A DNA stretch of 53,732 nt from Candidatus Micrarchaeota archaeon (GCA_037440825.1 JBBITJ010000003.1:1-53732), one strand, 5' to 3'; shown: positions 6,001-15,000, counted from the stretch's first letter. Made by a program: the numbers.

Positions 6001-9000
6001 CCGAAGGGCACCACGGAACAGGGTGCTCGCCCATCTTCAGGTAGCCCAGTTCCTTGAGCTTCATGAACTGCCATTCTATGAACTTGTTGAAGTGCGGATC
6101 CAGGGTGTAGAACTTCCTCCTCCAGTCTATCGAATACCCCATCTCCCTCATGCCCTGCTCTATCTCGTGCGAGAAGTGCATCACGAGCGCCTTGGGATCG
6201 GTGAGGGTGGCTGCCTTGGCCCTGCTTATTCCGTATATCCTCTCGAATATGGAAAGCAGATCCGGATCGTTTTCCCTTATCTTCTTGGCCATGCTTATTA
6301 TCGGCGTCCCGGTTACGTGGAAGCCCATTGGGAACAGCACGTTGAATCCCTTCATCCTCCAGTATCTGGCGTATATGTCCGCGACCGTGTACGTCCTTCC
6401 GTGGCCGATGTGCTGCGGCGAATTCGGGTAGGGGAATGCGGCGGTTATGTACTTCTTCTCCTTCGATTCGTCAGCCCTGGCTTCGTAGACCTTCGCCCTT
6501 TCCCATTCCAGGTTCCATTTTGCATCGAAAGACCTGAGGTCAGCTATTTTCTCTTCCATCAAAGCACCTTTATTGAGCGATAAGGAATACCTATTCTGCT
6601 CGCATGCTTTTTATATATTATTATATAATACTTCTCGATAGCATGCTTCCCGTACCGATGGCAGCGGCGCTTCTGGCGGCCTACCCGACTTTCCAGGACG
6701 CTCTCTCGGGCTATTTCACGGATGTGCTTCCGCTCATCCTCGCCTCTTTCGCAATAAGCCTGTTCGTAACCGCGCTCATGTACATGGCAGGCAGCGCACT
6801 GCAGTCGCAGGACTTGCTTGCATTGGGCAAGGACAACCTGGCCAACCTCTTCTTCTCCGCGATAATCGTGTTCATGTTCCTCGCGCTGTTCGCGATATTC
6901 CAGCAGTTCGCGTCAGCCATCGCGTGCGGCCAGCCGTGCGACCACCTCCAGGCCGCGTATTCGAGCGTCCTCATGCTGCGCTCCAAGCTGATGTCCCTAT
7001 ACTTCAACCTCTACTTCTACGAGCTCATATTCGGTTTCCTCTCCACGCTGGGCTTCTCCATTCCTCTTCCTGCGCTCGGTCCGGCGAGCCTGCTCGCATT
7101 CATCATCAACCTTCCCACCATTTCGTTCGCGCCCCTCTCGGGCCTCACTCCTCTTTCAAATGCGCACACCATAGTGGTCGAGGCGGTGGGAACCGCGCTC
7201 CTCGCCGTGCTGGCGAGGCAGGTGCTCCTCGAATTCGTGATGAAATACATGTTCGTCTTCCTCGTGATCGGCGCAGGGCTGCGCTCCATGTGGTTCACCC
7301 GCCGCACGGGCTCGAGCATACTCGCACTCGCCGCAGTCTCGTATTTCGTCTATCCGCTCGCCGTCCTTCTCTCCAACTACCTCATCTTCCAGGCGTACGA
7401 GCCCGCGAACTTCGGAGTCATACCTACCTCCATCGGCTTCTGCGAGGACTCGACCACCCTCGGATCGCTTTCCGTGATGTTCGCGAGCGAGCGCAGCAAC
7501 CTCTACAACGCGTCCATCCCCAAGTCCGAGACGAAATGGTACATGTTCTGGAACACGCTGGTTGACGGCGCGAACTACGTGGGCGAATCCGCCTCGATGA
7601 TGCTCAAGGTGCTCTGGTCGTTCAACATGAACCTCGCCTACCTGCTCATACTCTCGCCGATGGCGTTCTCCACTTTCCTGGACTTCCTGTTCATAGAGAT
7701 ACAGACCCAGGTGCAGTTCCTGGTGCTCGTGTTCGTGTGCTTCGTCACAGAGATAATAATCACGATAACGATGTACCGCGGCGTCGCGATGCTCATAGAA
7801 GGAGAATCCGAAATATTCGGAATAAGCAAGCTCATGTAAGATGGTGAAATGGCGTTCCTGTTCGAAACCCTTGTGCCGACAATCGGCTTCCTCATGGTGC
7901 TGATCATAATGCTCGCCTACGTTGGCGGCAAGATCTTCCGCATCCCGTCCTGGGAGGCGTACTTCAATGTGGAGCTCCACAACCTCGTGTTCGCGGTCCT
8001 GCTGCTGAGCGTAGCGTTCGCAGCGTACGAAGGGATGAACTCGCTCGCGTACGACGTAGTTGGCGCGAGCCCGGTGCAGGCGTCCATGTCCTTCCTCAAC
8101 AGGATAACGAACAAGGGCGTGCTTCCAATGTACAAGGACCTGCTCGGCATAGAGGCAGGGACCGCGATGAGCAACTCGTTCTACATCAGGATGGGGCCCG
8201 GAGTATGGTCCTACACCAACAAGATCGAGCCGGGCGCGGACGCGATCCTCTCCATGGTGAGGCTCATGAGCATGGGCCTCATAGTGATATACGGAAGCCT
8301 GAGCATCCAGTACATCGGGCTCAGCCTGGTGGATTTCGGGATGCCGCTCTCGCTCTCGCTCGGAGTGCTGCTCTTCATACTTCCCTCCACGAGGGAGGCG
8401 GGCGCGTTCCTCATGTGCTTCGCATTAGCGTTCCAGATAATATTCCCGTCGCTTTACGCGCTCAACCAGGTGATACTCGATGACATGGCGTGCGCCCGCG
8501 CGACTGCGGAAGGCAACGCGTGCGAGCCCTACGATGCGTATATTCCTGAAATCGCGCTCTTCGGTGTGCAGGCAAGGGGAGTTTCTTTCCTGTCCTACCT
8601 GGTCCCGCTGGCGAGCCTGGCGAACTTCGAGCTTCTGATTCCATTCATCAATGCAATGGCACACCTCACGCTGGTCTCGCTTTTCCTGCCGGCGCTCGTG
8701 CTCACGATAACGATAGCGTTCATAAACGCGCTCACCAAATACATACTGGGAAGGATATGAGACTCGCACTTTTCGCCCTGATGGCCGTTGCGGCCTCGTT
8801 CGCTGCGGAAATCCAGGAGTTCTACGAGCCCAGCAACCCCGATTCCCTCTATTTCGCGTGGGGCGTGCTCGCAGCAGGGGCGCTCACGCTGAGCATATTC
8901 CTTGCAGGAATAATCTACATGGCCGGCAATTTCCTGATGAACGAGAAGATCAAGGGGTGGGCGAAGGCGGAAGCGGTGGAAATCCTCTATTCAGGCGTCC

Positions 9001-12000: not shown

Positions 12001-15000
12001 GACTACGGCACGTATGGCATGCTGAAATACCTTCTGCCCCTGGCGCTCATAATGCGCAGCTTCACGCTCACGCGGCGCATAGGCGGCACGATAATCTCCA
12101 TCACCATTGTTTTCCTGTTCGTCTACCCGCTGCTCGTGATACCCTCGTACATGGTCGTTAACGACTCCCTGTTCGGTAGCATATCCAAGTACCTCCAGGG
12201 CGGGCAGTATGCAGGCGTGTGGGGGGCCAGCACCTACTTCTGGGCCGTTATAGAGATGATGTTCAAGTTCCTGTGGAGCCCGGACTTCCTCTTCGGCTAC
12301 GCGCTGCTCTTCATGCCGTTCATAGCCAAGATATTCATAGGAGGCGTGTTCATGCCCCTCTTCAACACGATAATACTCACGAACACCGCCAAGTACCTGT
12401 CCAGGTCGCTTGGAGAAGAGATAGATATAACAAACCTGACCAGGATGATTTAGCATGACGGGCGTTTACACGAGTGATTTTGATGGCTGATTGGGAAGCC
12501 CTGGCGATAATGGCCGCGTTCATTGCGGTGCTGGTGTCAGCCCTGCTGCTAATGCTCTCCCGCATACTGGACTTCAAGATCCTAGAGCAGTCCGCAAAGG
12601 CAGAGCTGGTCTTCGCGGCCAGCTCTGTAATACTTGTGATATTCCTGATTGGCGCGGTGAAATACGGCACCGACATAGGAAAGACCGTGTCAGCGAGCAT
12701 GTACCTGTACTCCTACCAGCACGTCGGTGAACTCCACTTCCTGAATGCCTCTGGGCAGGAGCAGGTGCTCGACACATCGATTTTCAGCAGCCCGGACTAC
12801 ACGCTCAACGAAATCGTGATACTCTACATGCGCTCGGTGATGTACTGCGCCGAATCAGTGGGCAATTCCGCGTTCTATGTCAGCCTCGCGGCGCACCAAA
12901 TATCCTCCTTCTCGCAGGACGTGTGGATGGCGTACCCTATAAGCGCATGGGCGTGGGGCGGCATCGCGCAGGCGGCTGACAACCTCCTCAACACATTCTA
13001 CTTCATGGAGCTTGTATATCGCATACAGATATACGTGATGAGGTTCATGGACGTGTTCTCCCTGAGCTACCTGCTTCCCATAGGCATACTGATGCGCTCC
13101 TTCCCTCCCACTAGGGCAGCAGGCGCGTACGTGCTCGCGTTCACCATCGGGGTATACCTGGTTTTCCCGATCGCTTACCTAGCTGCCGTTTTCTCTTCTC
13201 CATACCCTGCGCTCTGCGCAACCCCCCAGCTTCCGGAAATCCCGCAGGGCGAGAGCTCCAAGGCCGGCATACTGAGCCAGCTCGTGATGTGGTACCGCGC
13301 CTTCGAAGGAGACCTTCTGGATTTCGTCGACAAGTTCTCTGACTTCACCAACTCGCTGCTCATAAACCTGTGCTTCTTCCCGTTCCTAGCGTTCGCGATA
13401 ATGATAACGTTCGTGCAGTCGTCCAGCGGGCTGTTCGGAGCCAACGTGAGCGAAGTCGGCCGGGGGCTGATCAAGCTTATATGAACCCTAGCCGCAGCTA
13501 GGAGTGCCCTGCCCCAGTTTTGTTTATAAAATTACCCTCCCTATCCATCAGCATGCGCAAGTTCGTGATAGACACGAGCGTCTTCGTGAACCACCAGGCC
13601 GCGAAGGCGTTCGGTCCGAATCCCAGGAAAGCCCTCGCTGCATTCGTGAAGATCGTATCCAAAAAGAAGGACTGCGAATTCTACATGCCGGACAGCATAT
13701 TCCGCGAACTCGGAAATTTCGTCGGCAGCGAAACATCGCGGCTCGAGACGGTGGTGAAGAGGCGCTCGCCGAACGTATACGCGATATACCTTCCCGCAGC
13801 CGTGTTCTACGATTTCGTCGAGGAAGTGCGGTGCAGGATAAACAAGGGGCTGCGCATAGCCGAGGAATTCGCCAAGGACAACAAGCCGGAGAACGCCGAG
13901 AAGGTGCAGAAGCTCAGGGAGAAATACAAGGAGGCGCTCCGCACCGGAATCGTGGACAGCAAGGAGGATTTCGAGCTCGTGCTCCTGGCGAAGGAGCTGG
14001 AGGCAACGCTGGTGAGCGCAGACGAAGGAGTATTGGATTTCGCCACGAAAATAGGATGCGAGATCCTCCACGCGTCCAAACTGAAGCCAGTAGTTTCGAA
14101 GAAATAGCCGCCTAATCCGTTATCCCCTTTCCATTCAAAAATTCCTTCAGCCTTTTCGAGCTCTTCACGTAAATCTTCCTGAACCGTATCCTAGTTCTGG
14201 TCCCTTCGTCCCGCTCGAACACGGTTTCGAGCTTCACTTCCTTGCTCATGTGCGATTTCAATTCGTCCCACACCAGCGGGTCCTTCACGGTTATCTCGAA
14301 TTCATCGTAAACGTGCCCTTCTTTCTCGAGCATCTTAAGCCCTTCCGCGAATCTCCCGTACACCGCTTTCCCGAGCTTCTTCCCGTATTCCTCCTCGCTG
14401 AGCCCGTACTCATTCACGAATATCGCTGATCTCAGGAGCCGCTGGTTGAAATGCCCTGTGGGCATGTCGAAGAGCGCCTTTATGCATATCCCTATGTCCT
14501 CTATGTCAGCGTTCGGGTTCACGTATTTCACGAGCTGCTTCCTGTCCTCGGACTTGAACACGATTCCTTCCTTCCCCTCCTTGTTCACGTTTAGCACAAG
14601 CTCCCTCAGCTTTTTAGCGTCCTTGGTTTTGTGGAATTTTCCAAGGTACGGCGCAGGTACGAGACCGTGCTTCTTCAGGAACGCGTAGCGCTCCTCAGGG
14701 GCGAGGTAGTCCTCCTTCGCGAGGTCGTAAACGTCGAAAACATAATACCTGACGTCGAAATCGCTGCGCGGGTGCGTGTAAGGCGTGTTCCCGATCATCT
14801 CCCCGCAAAGCATCATCCCCTCCACTGCCGCCCGAGGCACGAGCTCCCTCAGCTTCTCGGTGGAAAATGCGTCTATTATCCCGCCTCTGCTCAACCCGTA
14901 AATCTCCCCCCCGATCGCTGCGCAGCGCAAATTGTATCCGTCTATCTTCTCTTCCGCGTGCACGCTTTCGCTGCTTATGTTGCGCTCCAGCCCCTTCTCC

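Follow-up and report, generated by a model that had tools for sequence, protein, structure and literature searches.

The genome of a Micrarchaeota (DPANN) archaeon, which has 875 kb, contains six co-directional and tightly packed ORFs for five-TM membrane proteins, located on the plus strand (6604-13484) of the stretch of 53,732 nucleotides that was analysed here, hereafter the window. The best reading, which is probably correct, is that they encode non-redundant, anciently diverged VirB6/CedA-like channel subunits of a chromosomal, T4SS-derived (Ced/Ted-like) translocon of Micrarchaeota.

The ORFs, which had been described before as six consecutive genes of 303-469 aa, are found exactly in that place (Table 1). 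The gaps between them are, from 5' to 3', 9, -4, 9, 1 and 20 nt, which suggests co-translation of the six genes from one transcript. The TTTATT sequence, a possible promoter element, lies inside the 41-nt gap between gene 1 and the divergent LeuRS gene. Gene 1 may in fact start at its second Met, Met14 (6643), because its orthologues measure 396-400 aa in five of six loci, and the leader would then have about 70 nt; the real start of gene 6 may be the ATG at 12483 rather than the GTG. The array is flanked by housekeeping genes (LeuRS, Trm5, an RNA ligase with a PIN partner, SerRS and CarA), and LonB, PEP synthase and exosome genes occupy the remaining window.

Table 1. Positions of the six paralogous genes and of the candidate promoter element in the window
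Feature	Position	Strand	Description
TTTATT, candidate TATA box	6569..6574	+	Read from sequence; about 30 nt upstream of the first ATG
Gene 1 (A1)	6604-7839	+	ORF, 411 aa; family profile E 7e-104; C-terminus ...FGISKLM
Gene 2 (A2)	7849-8760	+	ORF, 303 aa; shortest of the six paralogues
Gene 3 (A3)	8757-10166	+	ORF, 469 aa; N-terminal signal-peptide-like segment; C-terminus ...AGLTHLI
Gene 4 (A4)	10176-11396	+	ORF, 406 aa; C-terminus ...GAFAKLI
Gene 5 (A5)	11398-12453	+	ORF, 351 aa; modelled paralogue; C-terminus ...TNLTRMI
Gene 6 (A6)	12474-13484	+	ORF, 336 aa; GTG start; C-terminus ...GRGLIKLI

The paralogy of the six proteins, claimed in the preliminary description, is real but distant, as seen by BLASTP, which gives E <= 0.001 for 12 of the 15 pairs, and by a six-way alignment. 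The weakest pairs are genes 1 and 5 (E 0.005), and genes 1 and 2 and genes 2 and 5 (both E > 1). The alignment has as its sole invariant residues M1, one P and the T, R and G of the TRxxG motif. The motifs that the six had been said to share are present as consensus (YMAGxxLQ, LRSFPxTRRxG and the C-terminal GLxKLI), but not in every member, since gene 2, like its orthologues, lacks the C-terminal motif and gene 6 lacks YMxG. The C-terminus of gene 6 hardly varies among its 14 orthologues, where it reads E[IVL]G[RT]G[LF]xK/R[LI]I. No Pfam or NCBIfam model matches the six proteins above its cut-off, as had been reported, and the only exception below threshold is DUF2938 in gene 3 (E 0.0056, 16.7 bits against a cut-off of 31.4). 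The family profile retrieves 3,343 representatives at E <= 1e-3, 2,876 at 1e-10 and 1,045 at 1e-30; the earlier count of 3,107 at E <= 1e-3 came from another profile. A search with gene 5 gives 26 cluster representatives at E <= 1e-3, its own cluster counted, and the five that are named belong to Micrarchaeota or Micrarchaeia (three), an uncultured archaeon (one) and Candidatus ainarchaeum (one).

Likeness to VirB6 was seen in predicted folds, where the evidence is moderate and varies by paralogue. The AF2 model of gene 5 (pLDDT 86.8, pTM 0.82) repeats the quality obtained before (pLDDT 86, pTM 0.82). VIA-align places the TrwI/VirB6 chain 7o3v_F first of 48,161 chains for this model, at Z 10.2 (alignment of 247 of 261 residues, rmsd 6.5 Å), and DotA of the Dot/Icm T4SS second, with Z 9.1, 294 residues and rmsd 8.3 Å, although Z values below about 13 can reflect a common arrangement among helical proteins. 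This order of the two chains repeats the earlier one, but two other points do not recur with the gene 5 model: instead of a single chain at Z >= 8 there are 16, and Foldseek gives TrwI not at ranks 1-4 but at rank 31 (E 0.34). Among the 16 chains, TrwI and DotA are the two full-length ones, and the other 14 are hairpin matches of about 60-80 residues, except one of 170 residues with rmsd 16 Å. For the singleton subfamily S, which was modelled independently (pLDDT 84.3), TrwI chains are found at Foldseek ranks 1, 3, 6, 8 and 10 (best E 0.043, probability 0.89), while VIA puts TrwI only at rank 29 (Z 7.4) and DotA is absent from its top 50 matches.

Searches at the level of sequence for a tie to VirB6 were negative. 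PF04610 TrbL matches neither the six proteins nor, in a whole-genome scan, the array, and the family profile finds no T4SS protein at E <= 10 among PDB sequences, in agreement with the empty search reported earlier. The hhalign comparison of the family with a TrwI-family alignment, which is narrow (every member at least 51% identical), gives probabilities of 0.12, 0.24 and 0.29% in three of three tries, and each try aligns other pieces, which makes the motif alignment seen in one of them a probable chance result. The N-terminus of CedA/VirB6 resembles the cognate pilin, according to a statement in PMC9905601. A pilin-like profile searched against 10,135 ORFs matches a single family segment, residues 47-87 of gene 3 (E 0.0069), and this similarity is weak, being found in 1 of 75 family rows and with hhalign E 0.036 and probability 1.4%.

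From the gene 5 model, hydrophobicity and charge, the subunits are predicted to be N-out with five TM, a large outside loop and C-in. The K+R density of the three predicted inside loops (0.105, 0.122 and 0.089) exceeds that of the predicted outside loops (0.021, 0.050 and 0.049), and the signal-peptide-like N-termini of genes 3 and 4, the latter within a long N-terminal extension, also count in favour of this topology. All eight N-x-S/T sequons of gene 3 (residues 291-371) fall in a long variable loop predicted to be outside. The chain would begin with a long helical hairpin, TM1-TM2, bearing the YMxGxxFQ motif at its cytoplasmic tip, followed by the large outside loop and TM3; the invariant TRxxG motif would form a cytoplasmic turn that connects TM3 and TM4, and a variable outside loop, TM5 and a cytoplasmic tail closed by the conserved G-L-x-K-L-I motif would complete it. 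The VirB6 of A. tumefaciens is likewise N-out with five TM, a large outside loop and C-in.

Elsewhere in the class, in sister orders, the array of six genes shares one cluster with genes for TrbC/VirB2-like pilins, for two membrane proteins and for a CedB/VirB4-like ATPase. The order in G033, G120 and G115 is pilin-like gene(s), a 7-TM protein, the six family genes, two membrane proteins of about 277 aa and an ATPase of 505-512 aa, and no pilin-like gene was confirmed in G120. By coordinates, the ATPase lies at most 3.5 kb from the array in seven of the 11 genomes compared outside the order of the source organism (adjacent in G033, G120, G115, G091, G102, G133 and G024; not adjacent in G056, G047, G105 and G053). 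The array of the source genome adjoins no ATPase, as the preliminary description had it, and the same is true of the arrays in its order, so the proposed pairing with the C7-type ATPase rests on the synteny of the other orders. The source genome has two ATPase paralogues, the C7 and C9 types; contigs C7 and C9 carry the ATPase modules, and the pilin genes lie on C5 and C2. It also has a seventh paralogue, at C5:1-830(-), after a pilin-like gene at C5:844-1200, and this cluster (pilin, paralogue, membrane protein, ATPase) is split over C5 and C9; the continuation on C9, with the membrane protein, the ATPase and a 253-aa protein, is taken from synteny with G005 and five others, seen in six of the seven loci fetched.

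The proteins encoded by these linked genes match T4SS families. Eight of nine pilin-like proteins match PF18895 T4SS_pilin and six match PF04956 TrbC/VirB2 (best E 4.2e-6), all below the curated cut-offs, and the pilin-like proteins of Micrarchaeota begin with a signal-peptide-like segment. The ATPases carry DUF87, AAA_10 and P-loop_TraG, and their best NCBIfam matches, all far below the equivalog cut-offs, are CedB (1.2e-30), VirB4-like CD1110 (3.5e-25) and CedD (6.7e-23), with HerA at about 1e-13. Four of 15 membrane proteins of about 260-277 aa match weakly the N-terminal regions of VirB4 or CedB, and the 7-TM, the 2-TM (121-161 aa) and the coiled-coil (231-260 aa) proteins of the cluster are conserved with no family match in the libraries scanned. 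Such family-less components would also suit a membrane complex specific to Micrarchaeota, without homology to VirB6, that would be the platform on which a HerA/FtsK-superfamily ATPase drives a new machine for secretion or filament assembly, the likeness to TrwI and DotA being convergence or a common helical arrangement. This explanation, which is unlikely but the strongest of the rivals, agrees with the lack of any sequence or profile tie to TrbL/VirB6 and with Z values of 7.4-10.2 and Foldseek E of 0.04-0.34, a range flagged as possibly non-specific for helical proteins. However, the two top-ranking Pfam families of the small proteins are TrbC/VirB2 (six of nine) and T4SS_pilin (eight of nine), CedB, CedD and VirB4 models exceed HerA for the ATPases, both best full-length structural matches of gene 5 are T4SS channel proteins and the Foldseek top match of subfamily S is TrwI; moreover, such a machine would still function in a T4SS-like way.

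The VirB6-like reading of the preliminary description holds and gains independent support, chiefly from context: the linkage of array, pilin and ATPase in other orders, the cluster with the seventh paralogue, the topology and the co-distribution over the 151 genomes of the phylum sample. The family is found in 135 of these and the ATPase in 134; both occur in 134, neither in 16, the family without the ATPase in one (G155, 89% complete) and the ATPase without the family in none. The genomes without both belong to six family groups (f15, f16, f19, f21, f22 and f23), and the co-distribution amounts to few independent events.

The tree of the family bears on whether the six proteins are different parts of one machine. 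All 19 position groups (A1-6, B1-6, C1-6 and S) are single clades, and with 18 changes the tree has the lowest number possible, against a shuffled mean of 61.4. SH-aLRT support is 90 for A1, 99 for A2, 96 for A3, 96 for A4 and 95 for A6, and between arrays A3 pairs with B3 at 92 and A6 with B6 at 87. The separate clade that each array position makes up throughout the order speaks for six subunits that are not redundant. Array B is a second six-gene array present in most relatives from the order, and it was not found in the source assembly; in the relatives giant ORFs (1,131-2,033 aa) that match no Pfam family come after it, and its position 3 has 616-1,380 aa compared with 420-526 aa in array A.

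Rather than parts of one complex, the paralogues could be alternative variants of a channel or of the surface that replace one another and serve host-range or antigenic variation, which is improbable. Such a role has been proposed for VirB2, VirB5 and VirB6 genes where these are amplified, in Bartonella Trw and in Rickettsiales. The large and highly variable outside loops, the widely different lengths at position 3, the sequons of gene 3 and the giant ORFs behind array B speak for it, and VirB2 arrays of Patescibacteria, with about 25% identity, are so interpreted in PMC12102498. Fixed copy number and order, and six positions that are single clades in the order and again in sister orders, are instead the pattern of obligate, non-exchangeable subunits rather than of a variable repertoire, and the close spacing of the genes, which suggests co-translation, points the same way. 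The predicted pairing of genes 5 and 6, with a score of 0.42 (runs 0.38, 0.42 and 0.43) against 0.00 for the best control, gives weak support to a shared assembly: 116 of 157 solved complexes attain the mark, compared with 2 of 215 mismatched pairs, and scores up to 0.60 that pass it come from 18 of the 157 complexes and from both passing mismatches. The runs have at least 74% of contacts in common and partner pLDDT of at least 65. T4SS-like components are mostly borne by mobile elements, but it is very improbable that the array belongs to an integrated conjugative element and not to a core cellular system, given its housekeeping flanks, the even GC content over the window, the absence of a relaxase or integrase among the neighbours scanned, and the breadth and conserved positional orthology of the family.

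As channel subunits of a translocon, the six proteins would stand side by side and build a single heteromeric pore, which may be a pseudo-six-fold ring. Its partners would be a TrbC/VirB2-like pilin and a hexameric, membrane-anchored ATPase of the CedB/VirB4-like kind. By analogy with Ced, the machine would carry DNA, or some other macromolecule, across the envelope between symbiont and partner cell, and import is the more likely direction.

Among the closest known systems, Ced of Sulfolobales has the VirB6-like paralogues CedA and CedE, both required for import and proposed to form a hetero-oligomer, and two ATPase paralogues, CedB and CedD, as described in PMC11868833. Ced is also a chromosomal, non-mobile, T4SS-derived archaeal machine with a two-helix pilin-like protein (CedA1, VirB2-like), polytopic VirB6-like channels and HerA/VirB4-superfamily ATPases, and it shares with the system described here more than one channel paralogue and two ATPase paralogues, the ATPases here matching CedB/CedD best. 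It differs in having two channel genes, compared with six fixed paralogues in one operon plus a singleton; no Pfam or NCBIfam Ced model attains its cut-off here, and the membrane part within CedB may correspond to the separate protein of about 260-277 aa. DNA import belongs to Ced, and for the Micrarchaeota array it is proposed by analogy. Ted of Thermoproteales (TedA, TedB and TedC) is presented in PMC9905601 as a minimal VirB6-like, VirB4-like and VirB2-like set with no recognisable sequence similarity to Ced. TedC's signal sequence at the N-terminus is apparently cleaved, which recalls the signal-peptide-like start of the Micrarchaeota pilin-like proteins, but Ted has one channel gene and not a six-gene array.

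In structure, TrwI/VirB6 of plasmid R388 (PDB 7o3v, 8rt9) is either the best match or the best among full-length ones (Z 10.2 and 7.4). This inner-membrane protein of 342 aa, polytopic and helical, is similar in size to the proteins of the array and linked to VirB2 and VirB4. Unlike the array proteins, it is encoded by a single gene, has 8-13% identity to the family models in structural alignments and no profile match, and, according to the entry titles, is found with TrwJ/VirB5 in the stalk, the solved VirB6 being a homopentamer and not an assembly of six paralogues. No relatives of VirB5, B7, B8, B9 or B10 were seen in the Micrarchaeota system. DotA of Legionella Dot/Icm (PDB 9ngy protochannel), the second-best full-length match of gene 5, is far larger, with 857 residues in the chain. 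Rickettsiales have tandem rvhB6 arrays, and Bartonella genomes have several distinct TrwI clusters, for example two each in B. australis and B. harrusi. These reduced-genome symbionts resemble the source organism in their several tandem VirB6-like genes, but they are bacterial, their proteins are clear TrbL/VirB6 members and their copy number varies, whereas six 1:1 positions are found here.

Patescibacteria (CPR), another ultra-small episymbiont lineage, retain a chromosomal T4SS with VirB4, VirB6 and divergent VirB2 arrays, whose components are reported in PMC12102498 as essential for epibiotic growth in the one strain tested. Theirs is a bacterial system of the monoderm conjugation type, and the pilin is amplified there while the channel protein is amplified in Micrarchaeota. 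If the translocon reading is true, the array may be a route by which these symbionts exchange DNA or other material with their hosts.

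Six adjacent ORFs of 411, 303, 469, 406, 351 and 336 aa lie on contig C3, all of which is the window, in a source genome (G000) of 875,410 bases in 45 contigs with a completeness of 95.6%, and the six paralogous genes proposed in the preliminary description are borne out. The genome is assigned to the DPANN phylum Micrarchaeota/Microcaldota by its close homologues, which bear the names 'Candidatus Micrarchaeota archaeon' and 'Candidatus Micrarchaeia archaeon', in agreement with the taxa of the ESM Atlas matches and a taxonomy lookup. From gene 1 to gene 6 the intergenic gaps are 9, -4, 9, 1 and 20 nt, and with this spacing the genes look like one operon. 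Pairwise BLASTP connects 12 of the 15 pairs of paralogues with E values of 3e-8 to 1e-3, while genes 1 and 5 have E 0.005 and the pairs 1-2 and 2-5 have E > 1. The residues invariant in the six-way alignment are the start Met, a T-R-x-x-G motif and one Pro only. The motifs earlier ascribed to all six proteins are present as a consensus, but gene 2 lacks the C-terminal one and gene 6 lacks YMxG. Pfam and NCBIfam scans agree with the earlier statement that the six proteins match no family of either database. A profile built from 56 family members matches 3,343 cluster representatives at E <= 1e-3. Housekeeping genes flank the array, the remaining contig encodes LonB, PmbA/TldD, PEP synthase, a Toprim protein and exosome subunits, and GC content is uniform across the window. 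A mobile-element origin of the array is rejected on this context of housekeeping flanks and even GC, and the window carries no mobile-element mark. The table also lists a 593-aa protein and five further predicted ORFs of the window.

Coordinates of the array, its flanks and related features (L, loci in genomes of the sample; C, contigs of G000)
Feature	Position	Description
Array of six paralogues	C3:6604-13484 (+)	type A array
Archaeal LeuRS	array flank	divergent to the array, 41 nt distant
Trm5b	array flank	Pfam/NCBIfam scan
Carboxynorspermidine synthase and decarboxylase	array flank	Pfam/NCBIfam scan
RNA ligase and its partner PIN_5 protein	array flank	Pfam/NCBIfam scan
SerRS, CarA	array flank	Pfam/NCBIfam scan
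593-aa protein	C3:21101-22882 (-)	PQQ-like/BamB-type beta-propeller and CarboxypepD_reg-like domain; probably a surface protein
Five predicted ORFs	C3:26064-27587, 27658-28653, 46475-47458, 47511-48365, 48367-49065	232-507 aa, no Pfam match at E <= 1e-5
Five-gene singleton cluster, G000	C5:1-1200 and C9:29050-31849	pilin-like, singleton, membrane protein, CedB/VirB4-like ATPase, 253-aa protein
Second TrbC/T4SS_pilin-like gene, G000	C2:45132-45464 (-) = L045:7133-7465	
Giant ORFs after array B	L009:13478-19809, L011:16173-20000, L016:15257-19018, L049:1074-7175, L051:3-6008	
7-TM protein	L037:6771-7502, L039:5953-6711, L041:15269-16003, L044:3609-4373	
7-TM protein homologue, G000	C4:27761-28598	apparently split across two frames
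P-loop protein, f12/f13	L038:12843-15200, L040:1889-4096, L042:1984-4230	
T2SSE ATPase locus, G000	C6:27252-32503	PF00437, E 5.9e-36

Of the 151 genomes in the phylum sample, 135 have the paralogue family, and each of the 21 genomes from the genus, family and order of G000 (G000 included) has 7-24 matches. Two types of six-gene array, A and B, occur in this order, and the window has type A. Order, sizes and C-termini are conserved in array A, the C-termini reading ...SKLI, none, ...THLI, ...AKLI, ...TRMI and ...GLIKLI from the first position to the sixth. The third member of array B has 574-1,380 aa. Giant ORFs of 1,131-2,033 aa come after array B in relatives, and the five that were scanned have no Pfam match; these ORFs did not appear in the searches of G000 and may be surface proteins that cooperate with the array. 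ATPase modules downstream of array B were also considered, and are absent from the stretches fetched from G011, G019, G020 and G003. No second array is found in the G000 assembly, nor beside the other family copies of G005, a genome of the same genus. Three other orders or families (f12, f13 and f14) have one six-gene array and one singleton gene. A search of a genome-contig collection with a single-protein query found no relative.

In a tree of 75 family members, which leaves out the loci L043 and L044 as well as L013, L015 and L018, whose ORFs were truncated or imperfectly called, all 19 position groups, namely the six positions of array A, of array B and of the arrays of sister orders plus the singleton, form clades of their own. 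The tree requires 18 changes, the possible minimum, versus a shuffled mean of 61.4. One clade per position group indicates that the six-fold set is ancient and that each position has been retained. The first, third and sixth positions of arrays A and B pair with each other (support 81, 92 and 87), so array B derives, at least in part, from duplication of a whole array.

A VirB4/CedB-type ATPase is encoded <= 3.5 kb from the array in 7 of the 11 comparable genomes outside the order of G000. The array of G033, G120 and G115 is followed by two membrane proteins of ~277 aa, a 505-512-aa ATPase, a small protein with two TM helices and a coiled-coil protein of 243-260 aa. A 7-TM protein is encoded 5' of the array in sister orders, together with one or two small genes in G033, G056 and G115. 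This conserved protein of 243-254 aa and about seven TM helices lies directly upstream of the array, has no Pfam match in the copy at L037, and has a homologue in G000. Among the membrane proteins of ~260-277 aa, 4/15 have weak matches to the N-terminal part of VirB4/CedB, which serves as a lead that these proteins could be that part, split off. The singleton of f12 and f13 belongs to a second cluster, in which a pilin-like gene, the singleton, a 3-TM protein and a 451-aa DUF87/AAA_10 ATPase are followed by three small proteins and a P-loop protein of 735-785 aa. The P-loop protein shares 35% identity between genomes, has weak HerA_C, Zot and CedD matches and could represent an additional, third ATPase in this system.

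The array-linked ATPases have DUF87 (1.6e-17), AAA_10 (5.5e-13) and P-loop_TraG (1.8e-9) domains, and their best NCBIfam matches are CedB, CedD and VirB4-like conjugation ATPases, which all rank above HerA. These matches fail the equivalog cut-offs (106.7 bits versus 700 for CedB, 81.1 versus 600 for CedD and 88.4 versus 325 for the CD1110 VirB4-like model). Judged by these profiles, the ATPases are superfamily-level relatives, with Ced and VirB4, not HerA, as their nearest named kin. Among nine small neighbours, eight match PF18895 (T4SS_pilin) and six PF04956 (TrbC/VirB2), with a best E value of 4.2e-6 and all under curated cut-offs, and these pilin-like proteins have a signal-peptide-like start and two hydrophobic helices. 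Beltran et al. (2023, PMC9905601) describe homology between the N-terminal hairpin of CedA/VirB6 and the cognate pilin. The pilin-like profile matches residues 47-87 of gene 3 with E 0.0069 among 10,135 ORFs, in just 1 of 75 family rows, and hhalign of the pilin against the family gives E 0.036 and a probability of 1.4%. In the ESM Atlas, a Micrarchaeota cluster in which 23% of the members have PF27251 (CedA1) is matched with scores of 0.91 and 0.90.

The array of the window has no VirB4/CedB-type ATPase linked to it, and the two ATPase paralogues of G000 are encoded elsewhere. On contig C7 a 271-aa membrane protein is followed by the ATPase, a 149-aa protein and a 243-aa protein, and this ATPase shares 55-63% identity with the array-linked ATPases of sister orders. 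A set paralogous to the C7 cluster runs into the end of contig C9, and contig C5 starts with a truncated family member (C5:1-830) that has a pilin-like gene (TrbC E 4.1e-5) ahead of it. In G005 and five other genomes the pilin, the family member, the membrane protein, the C9-type ATPase and a protein of ~231 aa are contiguous (at L102 in G005), and by this synteny C5 appears to adjoin, with its start, the end of C9. The contiguous five-gene singleton cluster is found in 6/7 loci fetched from the order of G000, where the singleton adjoins the second ATPase. The fragment on C5 might also be taken as the start of array B, a reading that is rejected since synteny identifies it as the singleton of a pilin-channel-ATPase cluster that continues on C9. 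A second pilin-like gene of G000, on contig C2, is surrounded by small single-TM ORFs, with Cdc48-like AAA and ABCE1 genes nearby.

The linked ATPase is present in 134 of the 151 phylum genomes and always together with the family: both are found in 134 genomes, neither in 16 and the ATPase alone in 0, while a single genome (G155, 89% complete) has the family without the ATPase. As few independent events underlie these counts, the co-distribution is a matter of consistency and not a statistical test. The 16 genomes that lack both come from families f15, f16 (part), f19 and f21-f23, and several of them are larger, with 1.3-1.6 Mb; perhaps their lifestyle differs, or their version of the system has diverged too far to be detected.

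Fold was compared with two AF2 models, that of gene 5 (pLDDT 86.8, pTM 0.82, 56-row alignment), which has very long helices of 27-52 residues and a small outside sheet, and that of the f12 singleton (pLDDT 84.3, 46 rows). For both models the VIA and Foldseek values sit below the tool's safe level for helical proteins: VIA-align places gene 5 closest to TrwI/VirB6 (Z 10.2, rmsd 6.5 A, 247/261 residues, rank 1 of 48,161 chains), with DotA second at Z 9.1, and Foldseek places TrwI at rank 31 with E 0.34. The remaining 14 chains at Z >= 8 match the N-terminal hairpin only, except for one 170-residue match with an rmsd of 16 A. The singleton model has TrwI chains at Foldseek ranks 1, 3, 6, 8 and 10 (best E 0.043, probability 0.89), and in VIA at rank 29 with Z 7.4, yet as the longest match listed. 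At E <= 0.001 neither model has a Foldseek match in the PDB. Among full-length matches of the predicted structures TrwI repeatedly comes out best, but none of the scores taken singly is safe for a helical protein.

VirB6 of A. tumefaciens has an outside N-terminus, about five TM helices, a large outside loop after TM2 and an inside C-terminus. Model helices and a hydropathy scan predict the same pattern for the family, with N-out, five TM helices, a large outside loop after TM2 and C-in. The density of K+R is 0.089-0.122 in the predicted inside loops versus 0.021-0.050 outside, which fits the positive-inside rule, and the signal-peptide-like N-termini of genes 3 and 4 are in line with the predicted N-out topology.

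Profile searches do not connect the family with VirB6. PF04610 (TrbL/VirB6) has no match at E <= 0.01 in the six proteins, and its sole match in a whole-genome scan at E <= 1 is an unrelated ORF on contig C6 (E 0.057), a polytopic membrane protein near a T2SSE ATPase in what is probably a type IV pilus-like locus. The family profile matches six distinct PDB sequences at E <= 10, none of them from a T4SS (three entries of the ABC-transporter protein TM_0288, two antibody chains and one lipoprotein). Comparison by hhalign with 37 TrwI relatives gives probabilities of 0.12-0.29% in 3/3 tries, a test of limited reach because the aligned TrwI sequences cover a narrow range, with identities of 51% or more throughout. 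An alignment of LPxGxxLRSFxxTR with GLGPxFIxALLWQPTxR in one try was not repeated with two other family alignments and is taken as chance.

The VirB6-like interpretation of the preliminary description draws its support mainly from gene context and co-distribution, and to a lesser degree from fold; we infer both the homology with VirB6 and the substrate. Two archaeal chromosomal T4SS derivatives are described, Ced of Sulfolobales and Ted of Thermoproteales; each combines a VirB2-like pilin with a VirB6-like channel and a VirB4-like ATPase, and the components of the two are presented as having no recognisable mutual sequence similarity (PMC9905601). Import by Ced requires both of its channel paralogues, for which a hetero-oligomer is proposed, and Ced also has two ATPase paralogues (PMC11868833). 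Patescibacteria retain a T4SS on the chromosome, with divergent pilins encoded in arrays, and its components are reported to be essential for epibiotic growth in the one strain tested (PMC12102498), while giant proteins of nanohaloarchaea have VirB4/TraG-like domains (PMC10266531). In the titles and abstract openings covered by searches of the Micrarchaeota/DPANN T4SS literature, and in passages from PMC12102498 and PMC10266531, no published account of such a Micrarchaeota system was found. The system is best filed with the Ced/Ted/T4SS kind, as a form with a six-paralogue channel.

The fixed gene order, the 1:1 orthology and the close spacing speak for a single complex of the six proteins, and the pair prediction for genes 5 and 6 (0.42 versus 0.00 for controls) lends this weak support. 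It is conceivable, though on balance doubtful, that the whole is a T4SS/Ced-derived Micrarchaeota translocon built round a hetero-hexameric ring of the six ancient VirB6-like paralogues, one copy each. Such a pseudo-six-fold channel would match the hexameric CedB/VirB4-like ATPase, on which the conserved cytoplasmic C-terminal tails would dock. The machine, present as two arrays through duplication in most of the sampled genomes of the order of G000, would be the main conduit by which the symbiont takes DNA or other macromolecules from its host, an archaeal counterpart of the Patescibacteria T4SS.

DPANN archaea rely on host cells, and a T4SS-related chromosomal machine with the phylum-wide presence of this family is a concrete candidate for the molecular conduit that joins symbiont and host. 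The proposed machine takes up between 7 and over 20 genes of a genome of ~1 Mb, and its channel component has been multiplied six-fold with the order then kept. Confirmation would bring DPANN, in addition to Crenarchaeota, into the Ced/Ted family of archaeal T4SS derivatives, and the machine would then be a well-supported candidate for a VirB6-type channel made of several paralogues. Cryo-ET, proteomics and genetics in those few Micrarchaeota that are in culture would gain defined targets, namely the array, the pilin and the two ATPases.
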